The notes below the pieces were generated by a model that was given only the letters and a program-made list of their open reading frames with translations, was not told the DNA's origin and made no database searches. The translations under genes and the position numbers were made by a program. Below, piece after piece: positions 2-64,000 of a stretch of 64,000 nt of DNA. This DNA is from Escherichia coli. GTDB lineage: Bacteria > Pseudomonadota > Gammaproteobacteria > Enterobacterales > Enterobacteriaceae. Position 1 is the stretch's first letter. Each line of letters starts with the position of its first letter. Location: assembly GCF_003334785.1 (NCBI RefSeq), contig NZ_QOWV01000008.1, one strand, 5' to 3'.

Positions 2-199
2 GGTTCGGTGATCTTTACTCTAAAAGCAACACGTACTGGTAACACGATTACTGTGATTGGTGCGGGCGAGGCGAGGAACTGGACACTGTGCTTGCGCAAT
101 GTTGTGAAAGTAAATGGTCTGCAAGGCGGTTCGCAGGCTGAAAGTGAGCAGGGGCTGGTGGTGAAGCCTCAAGGGAATGCGCTGACAATTACGTTGTAA
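2..199 (+). CDS. 3' end of a CDS that begins upstream of the window; probably alpha-xylosidase YicI by synteny
   Basis: Open frame from window start to stop at 197-199, convergent with yicH; identity inferred from K-12 gene order only. Confidence 0.4.
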   Translation, partial: GSVIFTLKATRTGNTITVIGAGEARNWTLCLRNVVKVNGLQGGSQAESEQGLVVKPQGNALTITL

Positions 200-214
200 T
201 CTATTGATGGAATG

Positions 215-239
215 CCGGGTACGTCTGAGTCGTACCCGA
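215..239. terminator. Hairpin between convergent yicI and yicH
   Basis: Inverted repeat ccgggtacg / cgtacccg in the 52-bp convergent gap. Confidence 0.35.
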
Positions 240-251
240 CGAGATTGATGT

Positions 252-1961
252 TTACTGCACCGGCTCCGTCGATGTAACTTCACCGCTGGAAACGACGCCC
301 GCATTCATGGTTTGAGTCACTTGCTGCTTTGCGGCGTTCACGGCATGCAATTGCCCGCTAACCGTAGGTTTCAGCGGGGCATTGGCCTGAATATCTCCAC
401 TGGCGGTAAGCTGAATATTGCCGTCGCCAGTCAACGGTAATTCAGGCCATCCCCATTGTTGCAAAATATTCACCGGCACACCGCGTCCATTCAGGCTGAT
501 ATGGGTCTGACGTTGTGGCGTTTGTGAAACACTGGCGGTGGCTTCCAGAATGCCTTTTTCAGTAAATGCACTCAGTTCGCTGATATTCACCGTGCTGCTG
601 TTGGCGGTCAGCGCCAGCGACGGGCGACGAACATCAACACGATTGAATGTCGCGGCGGCGGCATTCAGATTCGCCGAGCCACTCCAGACGCCCCATTTAT
701 GATCGGTAACCAGCGTCAGGTTGGCACCGTAACCATCGAGCGTGGTGAGCTGCCACGGGAAGTCAGGGTCGATATCAATGATCAGATTGCGGCTGGCGCT
801 AAATCTCTTCAGTTGCAGGCTGTTTAACCAACCGGGTGTCGTTTCCATCCACAACTGTTGCCAGTTTTTCGGCAAGGTATATTCCAGCCCGGCAATTGCC
901 GCATCATCAAGGATCAACGTTTTCCCGTCACGCAGCCAGTTCCCTGACGTTCTGACCATACCCCCTTCCCAGCGGCTGGTGAACTGGCGCAGCGCTACGC
1001 CCTGCGGGGAAAATTCCGCGTTTATAATCGGGTCAAATAAATGCAGCGAACCATAAATGAACTCGCTAGCGTTCATCGACAGTTTGCCTTCTTGTGTCTG
1101 CCAGTCATCTTTACTGAAGGTCATGTTGCGCAAGCTGAGATCGAGGTCGGTCACCGCCCAGTCCGGACCTTGCAAACGAGCATCGATCACTTCCAGGCGA
1201 CCAATCTGCAACGACGGGACAGAGCGTAATGGCGCAAAGAAGTCGGTTAGCGATTTTTCGCTTTGTAGACGGATATCCGCCATGCGCAGGTTTTCCACTT
1301 GCCAGCTGCCGTCGGCGTTACGCTGCGCGTTTCCGGTTAATGTCCCGCGCGCGATGTCGGCACCCAGGTTAGTCAGCGTAACGCGATCGTTATCAATACT
1401 GCCTTCAATCAGTACATTGGTGGCAGGAACATCATTGAGCGAAAGCGATCCGGCACTAAACTGAATCTGCGCCTTCGTACCCAGCACTTTACCGGCTTCT
1501 GGTGACCACGGAACCACGCCGCCATTTACCCGCTGCGCGCTCAGTTTCCATTCGCTATTCGGGCTATTAAACGCCATATCACGCAGTTGCAGACGATCGG
1601 CTTTGAACGGTAGCGGCGCGGTCTGGTCGGTGAGATTCAGCGTCCCGTTTTCCAGCAGGATGGTATCGACATGGCGTGGTTCGGTCAGTTGCCGACTACT
1701 TAGCGCAATGTCGACACTTTTGGCCACCAGGGTCGCGGGCTGGCCATCACGACCAAACGTGACATTCTCCAGCACGATATGAGATGGCGCGGAAAAACGG
1801 TGATCCATCGCCCCGAAGGCCAGATGATAGTCGCTATTCTCGGAAACCCATGCGCTGATATGTTCTGCTCCCCAGCGGGTTTGCAGAAGAAAATAGAGGC
1901 CAGCGATCACCACTAACAGAGCGATGAGAATGTAGAGAAGCAGCTTCCCAATAAATTTCAT
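252..1961 (-). CDS. yicH: AsmA-family membrane protein YicH
   Basis: ORF 252..1985; N-terminal signal/TM segment MKFIGKLLLYILIALLVV; start set at second Met to give 569 aa. Confidence 0.8.
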   Translation of the reverse strand: MKFIGKLLLYILIALLVVIAGLYFLLQTRWGAEHISAWVSENSDYHLAFGAMDHRFSAPSHIVLENVTFGRDGQPATLVAKSVDIALSSRQLTEPRHVDTILLENGTLNLTDQTAPLPFKADRLQLRDMAFNSPNSEWKLSAQRVNGGVVPWSPEAGKVLGTKAQIQFSAGSLSLNDVPATNVLIEGSIDNDRVTLTNLGADIARGTLTGNAQRNADGSWQVENLRMADIRLQSEKSLTDFFAPLRSVPSLQIGRLEVIDARLQGPDWAVTDLDLSLRNMTFSKDDWQTQEGKLSMNASEFIYGSLHLFDPIINAEFSPQGVALRQFTSRWEGGMVRTSGNWLRDGKTLILDDAAIAGLEYTLPKNWQQLWMETTPGWLNSLQLKRFSASRNLIIDIDPDFPWQLTTLDGYGANLTLVTDHKWGVWSGSANLNAAAATFNRVDVRRPSLALTANSSTVNISELSAFTEKGILEATASVSQTPQRQTHISLNGRGVPVNILQQWGWPELPLTGDGNIQLTASGDIQANAPLKPTVSGQLHAVNAAKQQVTQTMNAGVVSSGEVTSTEPVQ

Positions 1962-2081
1962 GGTCTTCCATCCCGTGAAATGCACATAAGGGAGTTATGC
2001 ACGATTTACGCGCAATCCTCAAGGCGGGAATGGTGAAAGAGGTGAGACTGCGGCGGTAATTATCTTACCGCCGCCAGTGAA

Positions 2082-3482
2082 TTACTGTTTTTCTGGTGGG
2101 AAAATCAGATTCAGCACGATGGCAGTAATACCGCCCGCGGCGATCCCGGAGGAGAGCAGGTTTTTCAGCCATTCAGGGGCAAACTGCAAAATCAGCGGCT
2201 GCTGAGACACGCCCAGACCAACCGCCAGCGACAGCGCGATAATCAGAATCGCCCGACGGTTCAGCGGCTCACGAGAAACGATACGCACACCGGAGGCGGC
2301 GATGGTGCCAAACATTACAAGCGTTGCGCCGCCCAGAACCGGTTCTGGAATGTGTTGTACAAAACCGCTCACTGCCGGGAACAGACCCAGCACGATCAAC
2401 ATCAGCGCGACGACAAAACCGACATAGCGGCTGGCAACACCAGTCAACTGGATCACTCCGTTGTTTTGCCCGAAGCAGGAGTTCGGGAAGGTGTTAAACA
2501 CCGCCGAAACAAACGAGTTCAGGCCGTTTGCCAGCACGCCACCTTTCAGGCGTTTCATGTACAGCGGACCGGACACTGGCTGTTCGGAAACGTCAGAGGT
2601 CGCCGTGATATCGCCAATGGTTTCCAGCGAAGTGATCATAAAGACCAGCATCAGCGGCAGCAGCAGACTCCATTCAATGCCAAGACCGTAATAGAGCGGC
2701 GTTGGCACCATAATCAGTTCTTGCGTCATCGGTTCGTTGCTTTCTGGCAACATGCCCATAAACCACGCCAGCGCATATCCGGCCGCCATCGCAATCACCA
2801 GTGAGGCCACGCGTAAGTAAGGGTTACGTTGACGGTTAAGCAGGATAATTAAGGCTAAGACCACGCCTGCCAGCAGCAGATTTTTCGGTGCGCCGAAGGT
2901 GTTATCGCTCATGGCTGCGTAACCGCCGCCAATGGACGTTAACCCAACCTGAATTAGCGACAGGCCGATAATCATCACCACAACGCCAGAAACCAGCGGC
3001 GTAATAATGCGGCGCGCCAGATGCAGAACGCGGGAGATCACCATCTCGGTGCAACTTGCCAGCATCAACGTGCCGAACAAAGCCGCCATCATGGTAGGAA
3101 CATCAGCACCACCGGTTTTCAGCGCGGTACCGCCCATAATCAGCGGGGCAACAAAGTTGAAGCTGGTGCCCTGAATAGACAACAGCCCGGAGCCAACCGG
3201 ACCCCAGGCCTTAATTTGAATAATCGATGCCACACCGGAGGCAAACAGCGACATACTAATAATGTGTTGCGTGTCTTGTGCCGGTAAACCCAGCGCCTGG
3301 CAGATTAATAGCGCTGGCGTGATCACCGCAACGAACATCGCCAGCAGATGCTGACAGGCGGCAAACAGGGTTTGAGGAAGCGGCGGACGATCTTCAAGAC
3401 GGTAAATCAGTTCGCTGTTTTGAGTCTGCGCAACCGGTTGCGCATTTTCTGACTCGAGGGTGGAAACAGACATCGAAAACAA
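2082..3482 (-). CDS. xanP: Xanthine permease (NCS2 family)
   Basis: 466-aa polytopic membrane protein, recognised as XanP/YicE. Confidence 0.9.
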
Positions 3483-60124: not shown

Positions 60125-61261
60125 ATGGATCTATTGATTGTTTTAACTTACGTGGCGCTGGCGTGGGCGGTCTTTAAAATCTTCCGCATTCCGGTAAATC
60201 AGTGGACGCTGGCGACGGCGGCGCTGGGAGGCGTGTTTCTGGTGAGTGGTTTGATTTTGTTGATGAACTACAACCACCCTTACACTTTTACCGCGCAAAA
60301 GGCAGTGATAGCGATCCCTATCACGCCACAGGTGACGGGAATTGTTACTGAAGTCACTGACAAGAATAATCAGCTTATTCAAAAGGGCGAGGTGCTTTTT
60401 AAGCTCGACCCGGTTCGTTACCAGGCGCGAGTTGACAGACTTCAGGCTGACCTGATGACGGCGACGCATAATATAAAGACGCTGCGTGCGCAGCTCACTG
60501 AAGCGCAGGCCAACACCACCCAGGTTTCAGCGGAGCGCGACCGTCTGTTTAAAAATTATCAACGTTACTTGAAAGGCAGCCAGGCGGCGGTGAATCCGTT
60601 CTCGGAACGTGACATCGACGATGCGCGGCAAAATTTCCTCGCGCAGGATGCGCTGGTGAAAGGCTCGGTGGCGGAGCAGGCGCAGATCCAGAGCCAGCTC
60701 GACAGTATGGTTAACGGCGAGCAATCGCAGATTGTGAGCTTAAGAGCGCAACTTACTGAAGCAAAATATAACCTTGAGCAGACTGTCATTCGCGCGCCGA
60801 GCAATGGCTACGTTACTCAGGTACTGATCCGCCCAGGTACATACGCAGCTGCCTTGCCGCTGCGTCCGGTGATGGTCTTCATCCCCGAGCAAAAACGGCA
60901 AATTGTCGCCCAATTTCGGCAAAACTCGCTGTTACGTCTGAAACCCGGCGATGATGCGGAAGTGGTGTTTAACGCGCTACCTGGGCAGGTGTTTCACGGC
61001 AAACTGACTAGTATTTTACCTGTCGTGCCAGGCGGTTCTTATCAGGCGCAGGGGGTATTGCAATCATTAACGGTCGTGCCCGGCACGGACGGTGTGCTGG
61101 GAACCATTGAACTGGACCCTAACGATGATATCGATGCCTTACCCGACGGCATCTACGCCCAGGTGGCGGTTTACTCCGACCATTTCAGCCATGTTTCGGT
61201 GATGCGGAAAGTGCTGCTAAGAATGACCAGCTGGATGCATTATCTTTATTTGGATCATTGA
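60125..61261 (+). CDS. yibH: HlyD-family membrane fusion-type protein YibH
   Basis: 378 aa with N-terminal TM and coiled-coil region; 2-bp gap after yibI. Confidence 0.85.
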
Positions 61262-61823
61262 GGGGGAGGGGGGAGATTATGGAACTTTGCTCCTTGTAAG
61301 GACTAATTATTTTTGCATATTACTTCATTAGCTGCGATGATTTTTCTTTAATATTCATTATGTTAATAAGTTCTGGATGAGTGTGCTCTCATTGGATTTT
61401 TTATCCGTCTTGTTCTGCCGCAGGATGAGACTATACATCGTCGAGATCGCAATGATGATATGAGTTGTTCCTCCTGCGACGGCTCTAATCAAAAAAGAGC
61501 AGGAGTGCTTTTCCATCTATTGCGATGATGGCTTTATTATCTGAAGGATGACAGTCACATTTAAAAAATATTTAATCTATAGATCACAATGTAGGGTCAT
61601 GGAATATATGTATACAACTATTTTCTTCTTCACTTTTAATTATCGTATTCATTATAAAACTAAGTTAAAAAAACTCCTGGAGAGTGAGTTATTAATATAT
61701 TTTTAAATAAAATTAAGTTATCATTCATCGATGCACTTTATAGAATCATCAATGGCCATAATAGTACTATTAACTCTCAATTTTATATTTTTATCATCAC
61801 TACAAATATTAACTGAATTTATA

Positions 61824-62242
61824 TCAATGATTTTTTTTATTCTTATCTTTTATTTTATTTACTGTTTCAATGCAATCAGCGGCAAGTTGGAGTGGATTTA
61901 GATTTTTCAGATATGGTCTTATGATCTTTCCCTTACTTAATAAATAGCATGTATAGGATTCGGAAAGTCCAGCATCTATTTTGTACCTCCTTATATTAGA
62001 TAAGGATGTGAGAAATTCCTTGTTATCATTCGCAGCCATATATGCCAGTCCGAGTTCAGCCTCTGCGGCCTTACAGGCAAAATAGCTTAGTGAACACGCT
62101 TTTCGTCCCTCTTTAGTACTGGCTGATATTAGTGCCCATAATATTGCTTTGTCTGCCAAATCTAACTCTCTCTGAAATTGTCTTGCAGTAACTGCACTCG
62201 CAGAAATAGAGAAAAAAATACAATTGTTAATAACCTTGCCAT
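61824..62242 (-). pseudogene. Secreted Sel1-like repeat protein (putative Rhs immunity-type), apparently frameshifted in a homopolymer
   Basis: ATG at 62242 opens MARLLTIVFF then stops after 26 codons; the 111-aa Sel1-like body (61824-62159) is in the frame 2 downstream; one extra A in the A7 run at 62212-62218 would restore a signal peptide plus body. Confidence 0.5.
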
Positions 62243-62541
62243 ATTTTTTAGTCCGTAACTGTTAATGTGCTATCTGGCTCTGAAAATATTAACTCATTTA
62301 ATTTTTGCATGTCATTAGATAAACCAGTTATACAACCCTCGGAACAGAATCGAGGTCCTAAAGACGGACCAAAAGCGTTTAAACAACTATGTATTGAAAA
62401 TCCATTGCGATTATAAGTTCCTGTATTAACTGACGGTACTAATCGTATGCCGTCAGGTTTTCTATTGCTTGCTCCCGGGTCATTAACATTCCAACTCCAT
62501 AGGCCTTGAGGTATTGGCCATCTATTTATAAATGTGTACAA

Positions 62542-62860
62542 CGGGGATTATTTTTACATTGCATATTATTACCAGAAGCGACTGGAATACTAAGCACATC
62601 ATAAAAATTATCATCACATGGTATATCTGAAACACACGAAAGCATACCTAAAGTTATGCTGTATAAACAGGTGGCTAATCCCAAGGGGATCGATTCCAGA
62701 AATCGGGTTCAACGGATACTGATAAAAATTCCACCTACCTTCCAGCCCAATCGGAGCCTGAGTGTTATACCGCCCCTGCTGCGGTTAATGTTACCGATAA
62801 TAGTTATAGTACAGCCCTGATTCATCATCATACTACTGCTGCGGCAGTCTGATGAACTAT
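62542..62860 (-). pseudogene. Degenerate Rhs core-end remnant with short tip
   Basis: Minus-strand translation gives [43 protein letters not shown], a stop-riddled copy of the Rhs core C-terminus. Confidence 0.5.
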
Positions 62861-62865
62861 TGCTT

Positions 62866-63327
62866 TTACGGATTCTCCTTATTCTTCCTTCTATCCATTC
62901 GCTTTAGCTTTTTGAGCTCTTGAAGTTTGCTCTTTGCATCAATATTACCGTTATTTACAGCGAATTCCATCCAATAAATAGCTCTATTCAAATTATAATA
63001 TTCTGATAATGTTGGATTTGTATCTGATAAAAAGACCCCATAATTAAACTGCGCTGTAACATTCCCCTGAGATGCTGATCTTTCCAAGAATCGCAATTGT
63101 TTGTAAATGTTATTTTTAGTAAAGCAGTAATATTGATATAGTCGAAATGATGCCTCTGAATCACCATGTTGTGATTTATACTTCAGTTTCATCAACTTTT
63201 CTTCACTTAAATCATAGGTCATTGCTGTAGACCCCATCATACTTTCGTTTTGTTTTATTTTCACATCAGCACCATGCAATTGACAAATAAAAGAGAAATA
63301 AAAAAATAGTAACAAGCATGCTTTCAT
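62866..63327 (-). CDS. yibG: Sel1-like repeat protein with signal peptide, YibG-like; putative immunity partner of the upstream Rhs tip
   Basis: 153 aa; N-terminal MKACLLLFFYFSFICQLHGA; starts 11 bp after the Rhs tip stop. Confidence 0.6.
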   Translation of the reverse strand: MKACLLLFFYFSFICQLHGADVKIKQNESMMGSTAMTYDLSEEKLMKLKYKSQHGDSEASFRLYQYYCFTKNNIYKQLRFLERSASQGNVTAQFNYGVFLSDTNPTLSEYYNLNRAIYWMEFAVNNGNIDAKSKLQELKKLKRMDRRKNKENP

Positions 63328-63338
63328 ACATCTACAAC

Positions 63339-64000
63339 CTATCTTATATCACTGGGTTTTTCTGGCGTACCTTGCATATTAGAAATGGGGTGCCCAGATG
63401 GCCCATATGTTATCCAATTACCAAGGTCTTTTGTTGTTATAGCCATTAGATCCTTATTTGAATTAAGGTTCGTTGGTGCTGTTAGCACTGTATCCATTTT
63501 TAACTTACCATTAGTTCCTCGCCCCCACCACGTCCATAGCGTGTCAGGTCCTATTACATTTGTATGTAACTCTTTAGCTAATTGGCTAGCAAATGAATTT
63601 TGTCCTTTACCTGTATTACAAGAAAATAACCAAACTGTCATCCCATCTTTATAATTCCCATCAAATTTAATTAGATATGCTAGATCTTTAGCTGTCATGA
63701 TACTGCGCGTTGCGGATTCAATAGATGTGGGGGTACCATGCCCCCCGATTGTGAAAACGCCTGGGATATTAATCTCATCAGCTACAGAATGGATAAGATC
63801 ACTTTCGGGGTATAAATTTATATCAACCAAACCTTGCGGATCTACATTTATGACCGGATTCAACGGATACTGATAAAAATTCCATCCCCCCTTCAGCCCA
63901 ATCGGATCCTGAGTGATATACCGCCCCTGCAGCGGGTCATAATAGCGGTGGCGGTTGTAATACAGGCCGGACTCCTCATCATACTGCTGCCCCGGCAGGC
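63339..64000 (-). CDS. Rhs-family protein C-terminal region (core end plus variable toxin tip), 5' end beyond the window; YibJ-like orphan
   Basis: Minus-strand translation of 63864-64000 gives ...[48 protein letters not shown] in frame with the 174-aa tip. Confidence 0.7.

Follow-up and report, generated by a model that had tools for sequence, protein, structure and literature searches.

An Imm57-family immunity pseudogene with two homopolymer frameshifts, in what is very probably the last orphan toxin–immunity cassette of the Escherichia coli rhsA locus

The stretch of Escherichia coli DNA analysed here (the window; 64,000 nt) carries on its minus strand, from 62242 to 61721, an Imm57-family immunity gene that is interrupted by two single-base frameshifts, one in a T run and one in an A run. 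The region is very probably the last orphan toxin–immunity cassette of the E. coli rhsA locus, at an advanced stage of decay. The gene itself is already known: it is annotated in RefSeq, is the same gene as K-12 yibV, and its state is one of ordinary gene decay. The features considered below are listed here in window coordinates.

61721–62242, minus strand: Imm57-family immunity gene in its full extent, a pseudogene (522 nt; 173-aa precursor if T7 is restored to T8 and A8 to A7; from PGAP, alignments to intact alleles, and Pfam)
62184–62242, minus strand: segment coding for the signal peptide, interrupted by frameshift 1 (MAR / LLTIVFFFSISASAV / TA, then RQ, in intact alleles)
62162–62242, minus strand: leader ORF of 26 codons resulting from frameshift 1 (10 initial signal-peptide codons, then out-of-frame codons)
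62212–62218, minus strand: frameshift 1, T7 on the coding strand (A7 on the plus strand), in place of T8 in intact alleles and GCTTTTTTT in the divergent one
61831–61838, minus strand: frameshift 2, A8 on the coding strand (T8 on the plus strand); intact alleles have A7
61824–62159, minus strand: 111-aa ORF, the extent of K-12 yibV (b4615, UniProt YIBV_ECOLI); central fragment of the pseudogene with the whole Imm57 domain inside
62248–62541, minus strand: remnant of the putative cognate toxin, a Tlde1 / L,D-transpeptidase-like C-terminal tip of an orphan Rhs fragment; H...SEGC motif kept, severed from its N-terminal part
62614–62832, minus strand: Rhs core-end fragment (PxxxxDPxGL region), head of the orphan toxin cassette, a pseudogene with an internal stop (PGAP feature, converted from extracted locus 2869–3087)

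The minus-strand ATG at 62242 opens a frame of 26 codons, MARLLTIVFFSLFLRVQLLQDNFRES, which stops at 62162–62164. The 111-aa ORF lies in a different frame, which is open upstream to 62261. This arrangement had been described in the first-pass annotation, which proposed that a single extra base in the A7 run of the plus strand (62212–62218) would fuse the leader to the body, and the minus-strand reading and the ORF list agree with that description. One T added to the T7 run gives the fused N-terminus MARLLTIVFFFSISASAVTARQFQRELDLADKAIL... (MARLLTIVFFFSISASAVTARQFQ...), and T8 alleles that are intact and have the same N-terminus occur in O121 RM8352, ETEC O6:H16, T2, NCTC9064, SCZE5 and other strains. 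Since these intact alleles encode the same N-terminus, the fused reading represents a natural allele rather than a chance product. A comparison of run length at homologous loci, which the annotation had recommended, thus placed T8 in the intact alleles against T7 in the window, in support of the view that the loss of one base from a homopolymer cuts a Sec-type signal peptide, as judged by sequence, from the protein body.

The same annotation proposed a single frameshift and overlooked a second one. Where intact alleles have A7, the window has A8; the extra base brings in a TGA at 61824–61826, which cuts off the last 37 codons of the 173-aa protein. The lost C-terminus is IIDINSVNICSDDKNIKLRVNSTIMAIDDSIKCIDE, with one altered residue before it. 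Given this second frameshift, the gene spans 61721–62242 (522 nt, 173 codons plus the stop), so that the interval 61824–62242 previously taken as its extent has to be replaced, while the position assigned to the first frameshift stands. The −1 and +1 shifts cancel each other; the ATG is therefore in the frame of the terminal stop at 61721, and PGAP accordingly draws a 522-nt pseudogene. Indeed, the PGAP label for this interval in K-12 (62242–61721 in window coordinates, 522 nt) is 'Imm57 family immunity protein, frameshifted'; PGAP also marks the gene as frameshifted in ATCC 8739 and annotates intact 522-nt CDSs in other strains. In alignments to these alleles, one indel falls exactly within the T run and the other exactly within the A run.

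We assigned the protein to a family by examining its repaired 173-aa form. It matched Pfam Imm57 (PF15596) with an E-value of 1.5e-46 and a score of 157, residues 30–127 aligning with positions 2–100 of the 100-position model; Imm57 was its sole Pfam match at E ≤ 10, and database homologs carry a precomputed PF15596 match. By inspection, the D...SE...C signature appears as KIDAGLSESYTC in the window ORF and as KIDAGLSEFYTC in a 52%-identical homolog (P0110). The body had earlier been called Sel1-like. Membership in the Sel1 repeat family (PF08238) was rejected, as the Pfam scan gave zero Sel1 matches, and the word 'Sel1' in the title of the first-pass annotation is wrong because that label belongs to the neighbour, YibG. 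NCBIfam gave no family for the repaired protein, the 111-aa ORF or the toxin remnants, PADLOC returned no defence-system match for the immunity protein or the toxin, and a PDB sequence search found no solved Imm57 relative. The large protein search reached almost exclusively Escherichia and Shigella, plus the one 52% homolog.

The leader of the intact alleles consists of MAR and LLTIVFFFSISASAV, followed by V-T-A before RQ or by A-S-A before VT, either of which would place small residues at −3 and −1 of the cleavage site. Residues 4–18 have a mean Kyte–Doolittle hydropathy of 2.26 and form a 15-residue hydrophobic core; the signal peptide was called by inspection and hydropathy alone. It is conserved in a 91%-identical E. 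coli allele and in the 52%-identical homolog, also of 173 aa, which starts with the hydrophobic MKLIITILLSILPQMICLA. Orthologs devoid of a signal peptide had been named as a finding that would speak against the fused reading; instead, the leader is present in two E. coli allele classes and in this distant homolog. A leader of this Sec type would probably export the Imm57 protein to the periplasm, and the mature part of the protein contains six cysteines. The dN/dS ratio between the intact allele classes is about 0.33–0.36, a value that would fit a gene now or formerly under purifying selection.

We then placed the gene in its genomic setting. By megablast, a 1201-nt region has matches in 3717 of 5426 complete E. 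coli genomes, always on the chromosome, and is 100% identical to strain JKHS016 over 1201 nt and 99.9% identical to K-12. The order of genes in K-12 is rhsA, yibA, an Rhs core fragment, yibG, a second Rhs core fragment with an internal stop, the frameshifted Imm57 CDS, yibH, yibI and mtlA; in the window, yibH is the adjoining plus-strand ORF at 60125–61261. The locus thus has the layout of orphan Rhs toxin–immunity cassettes: rhsA and yibA, then a core fragment with yibG, then a core fragment with the Tlde1 remnant and Imm57, then yibH. DPIGL and DPLGL motifs are present in the corresponding frame of strain ST648, and the peptide matches the C-terminal end of Rhs cores of known structure. The GC content of the cassette is 26–40%, in comparison with 50–56% for yibH, and such AT-richness is expected of a horizontally acquired Rhs tip. 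The spacer between the Imm57 stop and yibH (61262–61720; 460 bp, 26–33% GC) has no RefSeq annotation. This yibV/yibH spacer has been listed as an H-NS-bound 'promoter island' (PMC3661553), and is described as containing a constitutive promoter that precedes yibU, a K-12 pseudogene (PMC3946193).

The preceding cassette lies on the same strand. Its immunity gene, yibG (62866–63327, minus strand), which bears the Sel1 name, is intact in the window and in K-12; a match of YibG to the NCBIfam family MerG was sub-threshold and was discarded as spurious. Its orphan Rhs tip (63339–63863, minus strand; the K-12 yibJ region) has a 160-residue toxin domain with no NCBIfam match. In ETEC O6:H16, 99-3165 and E66, yibG is split into ORFs of 126 nt and 327 nt (extracted loci 1429–1890 and 129–590), and Imm57 is intact there. 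Decay in the array affects different cassettes in different lineages.

Imm57 proteins have been paired with Tox-LD-peptidase (or caspase) toxins with RHS repeats and described as having a conserved 'D, SE, C' pattern (Zhang et al. 2012, PMC3482391), and the link to these toxins has been repeated in the Tlde1 preprint (bioRxiv 10.1101/2020.02.18.954545). We found such a toxin immediately upstream of the gene. The Imm57 ATG of ST648 and XH990 is preceded, at a distance of no more than 5 nt, by the end of an open Rhs-tip frame that encodes a Tlde1 domain; the N-terminal part of this frame matches the end of solved Rhs cores, and the tip that follows has about 145 residues and ends in ...HSCLNAFGPSLGPRFCSEGCITG...TVTD before its stop. 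The intact ST648 tip matched Pfam Tlde1_dom at E 5.3e-07 and is named 'tlde1 domain-containing protein' by PGAP. The toxin peptide matched PDB entries via the Rhs core-end segment only. In the window, what precedes Imm57 is a decayed remnant: its 97-aa ORF (62248–62541) gave weak matches to Tlde1_dom (0.0083) and YkuD (0.038), and alignment with the open ST648 frame revealed indels of +1, −9 and −1 as well as stop codons. In XH990, the open Tlde1-type Rhs tip is accompanied by an intact T8/A7 Imm57 gene. Two rearrangements were also observed at these loci. In XH990 (extracted locus 1–2513), a truncated rhsB and yhhH adjoin yibA, an arrangement that suggests recombination between the rhsA and rhsB loci. 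In ST648 (extracted locus 1479–2898), the rhsA orphan array has insertions of an ISAs1-family transposase and of a transposase fragment, which immediately precede the live Tlde1/Imm57 cassette.

Effectors of the Tlde1 type have L,D-carboxypeptidase/transpeptidase activity and, once directed to the periplasm, damage peptidoglycan (PMC9638812). A toxin acting in the periplasm would explain the Sec-type leader on the immunity protein, and the six cysteines of its mature part also fit. The Imm57 protein presumably confers immunity to the Tlde1-type toxin. We propose that the ancestral gene encoded a 173-aa, Sec-exported Imm57 protein that would have neutralised the Tlde1-type peptidoglycan toxin of the Rhs tip just upstream. 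A change from T8 to T7 would then have separated the start codon, along with the first half of the signal peptide, from the rest of the gene, and a later change from A7 to A8 would have truncated the C-terminus. Indels and stop codons interrupt the upstream toxin tip as well, and all that would remain is the 111-aa yibV, which has no canonical start in the leader frame. The gene has presumably lost its function in the strain of the window.

We next asked how the two runs vary in the population, using queries of 80–81 nt centred on each run, for which a single difference drops the match below 99% identity. Among complete E. coli genomes, exact copies of the T7 80-mer were found in 3207 and of the T8 81-mer in 38; a tract of T8 length combined with one SNP was present in at least 22 others. 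The T7 80-mer is identical in 3207 of the 3363 complete genomes that carry this allele, K-12 included (about 95%). For the A run, exact A7 copies were found in 2141 genomes and A8 copies in 999. About 335 further genomes carry the allele of about 91% identity, which was intact in both of those examined (ST648 and ST38). Intact alleles of more than 99% identity were those of O121 RM8352, ETEC O6:H16, XH990, 99-3165, SCZE5, T2, NCTC9064 and E66. In a larger protein collection, 580 contigs had the intact 173-aa protein of K-12 type, while YibV (111 aa) and the T7/A7 product (145 aa) each occurred on at least 1000.

The window has the K-12-type lesions, T7 and A8. Intermediate states are provided by ATCC 8739, which is T7/A7 (521 nt, one frameshift), and by CFSAN004176 (extracted locus 1214–1734), which is T8/A6, a different single frameshift in which A6 is either real or a long-read assembly error; the A run thus occurs in E. 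coli as A6, A7 or A8, with A6 in one genome examined. A base substitution was also noted at 61988–61990 (minus strand), where the window has AGG and K-12 and all other alleles examined have ATG, changing NIMRYK to NIRRYK. Since the NIRRYK variant of the 111-aa protein was found on 785 contigs, it marks a common sub-lineage.

In a table of 1.8-kb haplotypes, T8 occurs in several SNP-distinct haplotypes, whereas T7 forms a tight derived group with A8 nested inside. O121, NCTC9064 and CFSAN004176 have an A at window position 61736, a state common to the divergent outgroup allele, and the retention of such outgroup states in some T8 haplotypes would fit T8 as the ancestral length. The simplest history would be T8/A7 to T7/A7 to T7/A8, that is, progressive pseudogenisation at mutation-prone homopolymers. 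The polarity from T8 to T7 depends on few SNPs in a recombining locus, and T8 alleles such as that of strain T2, which are near T7, could be revertants.

Length polymorphism of both runs across E. coli (T7/T8 and A6/A7/A8), together with the presence of T8 in several SNP-distinct haplotypes, might also be expected if the gene were a contingency locus, in which slipped-strand mispairing at the T and A runs flips immunity ON and OFF at high frequency. The distribution of the alleles makes phase variation of this kind quite improbable. T7 predominates in genomes with this allele at the frequency given above, and T8 is confined to particular lineages, where it is consistent and co-varies with the SNP haplotypes: it recurs in a number of O121/O121:H19 genomes assembled independently, in ETEC O6:H16 and the two strains with its allele (99-3165 and E66), and in a group that has it at the same genome coordinate. 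Such lineage-consistent T8 points to stable inheritance. Moreover, 7–8 A or T make a short run for an efficient switch, the T8 strains have a dead partner toxin too, and the allele of the window would require two simultaneous corrections for full restoration. Of the three explanations offered in the first-pass annotation, namely a pseudogene, a slippage-prone tract and a sequencing error, the second, taken as a switch, is thus disfavoured, tract length being stable within each lineage, and it is the pseudogene that we retain.

The pseudogene reading also has to be set against the possibility that yibV is an independent functional gene, producing a cytoplasmic protein of 111 aa from the TTG at 62159 or of 135 aa from the ATT at 62231. 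An exact-sequence look-up identified the 111-aa ORF as 'Protein YibV' (YIBV_ECOLI), from which the window differs by one M-to-R change; a protein is annotated in K-12 and in UniProt, and the body frame is open from 62261. On T7/A7 alleles, PGAP sometimes calls a 169-aa product, and some NCBI annotations (P0052, P0053, P0062 and P0064) start this product, MNNCIFFSISAS..., at the ATT at 62229–62231 (minus strand). These ATT-start calls (MNNCIFF...) are an annotation device and do not constitute evidence of expression. Against an independent gene, no ATG, GTG or TTG occurs in frame from the upstream stop at 62264 down to the TTG at 62159, which is the only canonical start. Promoter-like sites in 61300–63000 numbered 7, as compared with 8.0 ± 3.0 in shuffled sequence, and a scan of the same interval found no terminators. 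A promoter serving the 111-aa ORF by itself had been named as another finding that would contradict the fused reading, but the promoter-like sites were at chance level and lend no support to an independent yibV transcription unit. Furthermore, without the leader the protein would be unable to reach the compartment in which Tlde1-type toxins act, and current RefSeq marks the gene as a pseudogene. A survey of the y-ome describes yibV as 'surrounded by pseudogenes' (PMC11551758). We consider an independent yibV very improbable. Residual expression of YibV may nevertheless occur, as the 111-aa ORF keeps the complete Imm57 domain and is listed in UniProt.

Recoding would offer another way of keeping the product. 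A −1 ribosomal slip on A-UUU-UUU, or transcriptional slippage on T7, would yield a low level of a signal-peptide-bearing protein, of 137 aa in the window, with the full Imm57 domain. The sequence is compatible with this to the extent that after a −1 slip on GUA UUU UUU U one U is read twice and the N-terminus is identical to the intact one, MARLLTIVFFFSISAS, with IVFFFSISASAVTAR as the junction peptide, and that the Imm57 domain (residues 30–127) lies wholly upstream of the second frameshift. Seven U residues are, however, below the length for efficient transcriptional slippage in bacteria, no stimulatory element was identified, and the decayed variants (A8 and A6) argue against selection on the product, which leaves recoding with very little probability. 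The same slight chance attaches to the more specific proposal that T7 is leaky, a −1 slip or the insertion of one U by RNA polymerase rebuilding the signal peptide so that K-12-type strains export a trace of the 137-aa protein. If this were true, the trace could partly protect against the Tlde1-type Rhs toxins of strains with a live cassette, such as those like XH990.

Finally, a sequencing or assembly error that hides a true T8 and an intact gene has next to no probability: homopolymers are typical error sites in long-read assemblies and tract length does differ in a minority of assemblies, but the T7 80-mer is identical in the 3207 independent complete genomes, which include K-12 MG1655 derivatives, the window is fully identical to JKHS016 over the 1201 nt, the independent second frameshift in the same gene is common to the 999 A8 genomes, and the exact 111-aa product is called on its at least 1000 contigs. 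These population counts identify T7 as a fixed inherited allele. As a whole, the first-pass annotation was right about the homopolymer frameshift and the pseudogene and wrong about Sel1, and it lacked both the second frameshift and the orphan Rhs toxin–immunity context.

On these results, the best reading of yibV, an uncharacterised 'y-ome' gene, is as the central piece of an Imm57 pseudogene with two frameshifts. Because its Tlde1-type Rhs toxin partner is also dead, yibV ought not to be regarded as an orphan protein whose function is unknown. Across thousands of genomes, the alleles T8/A7, T7/A7, T7/A8 and T8/A6 neatly illustrate how orphan immunity genes decay step by step at homopolymers; they do not represent a new mechanism, and the significance of the finding beyond annotation is small.

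The closest known counterpart is K-12 yibV (b4615), the frameshifted Imm57 pseudogene of RefSeq, which is the same gene with the same T7 and A8 lesions at 99.9% identity over 1201 nt; the window differs from it only by the private SNP that changes ATG to AGG ('NIRRYK'). With the Imm57 immunity proteins of polymorphic toxin systems (PF15596), the gene shares a full-length HMM match, a position after an Rhs LD-peptidase tip and the D...SE...C signature, but unlike them it carries two inactivating frameshifts and has a degraded toxin partner. The Salmonella Tlde1a–Tldi1a pair of the T6SS (PMC9638812; Sibinelli-Sousa et al. 2020) has a toxin of the same domain family (Tlde1_dom / YkuD-like, H...S-x-G-C). 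Tlde1a is a stand-alone effector, whereas the E. coli toxin is fused to an Rhs core tip, and the cassette of the window is presumably non-functional. Orphan Rhs/CDI toxin–immunity modules are reportedly found downstream of a main rhs gene (Poole et al. 2011; Koskiniemi et al. 2014). The array after rhsA-yibA in the window likewise consists of a core-end fragment, a toxin tip and a small immunity gene, first as yibJ-yibG and then as the cassette described here, and is AT-rich; the latter cassette is more decayed than most such modules.
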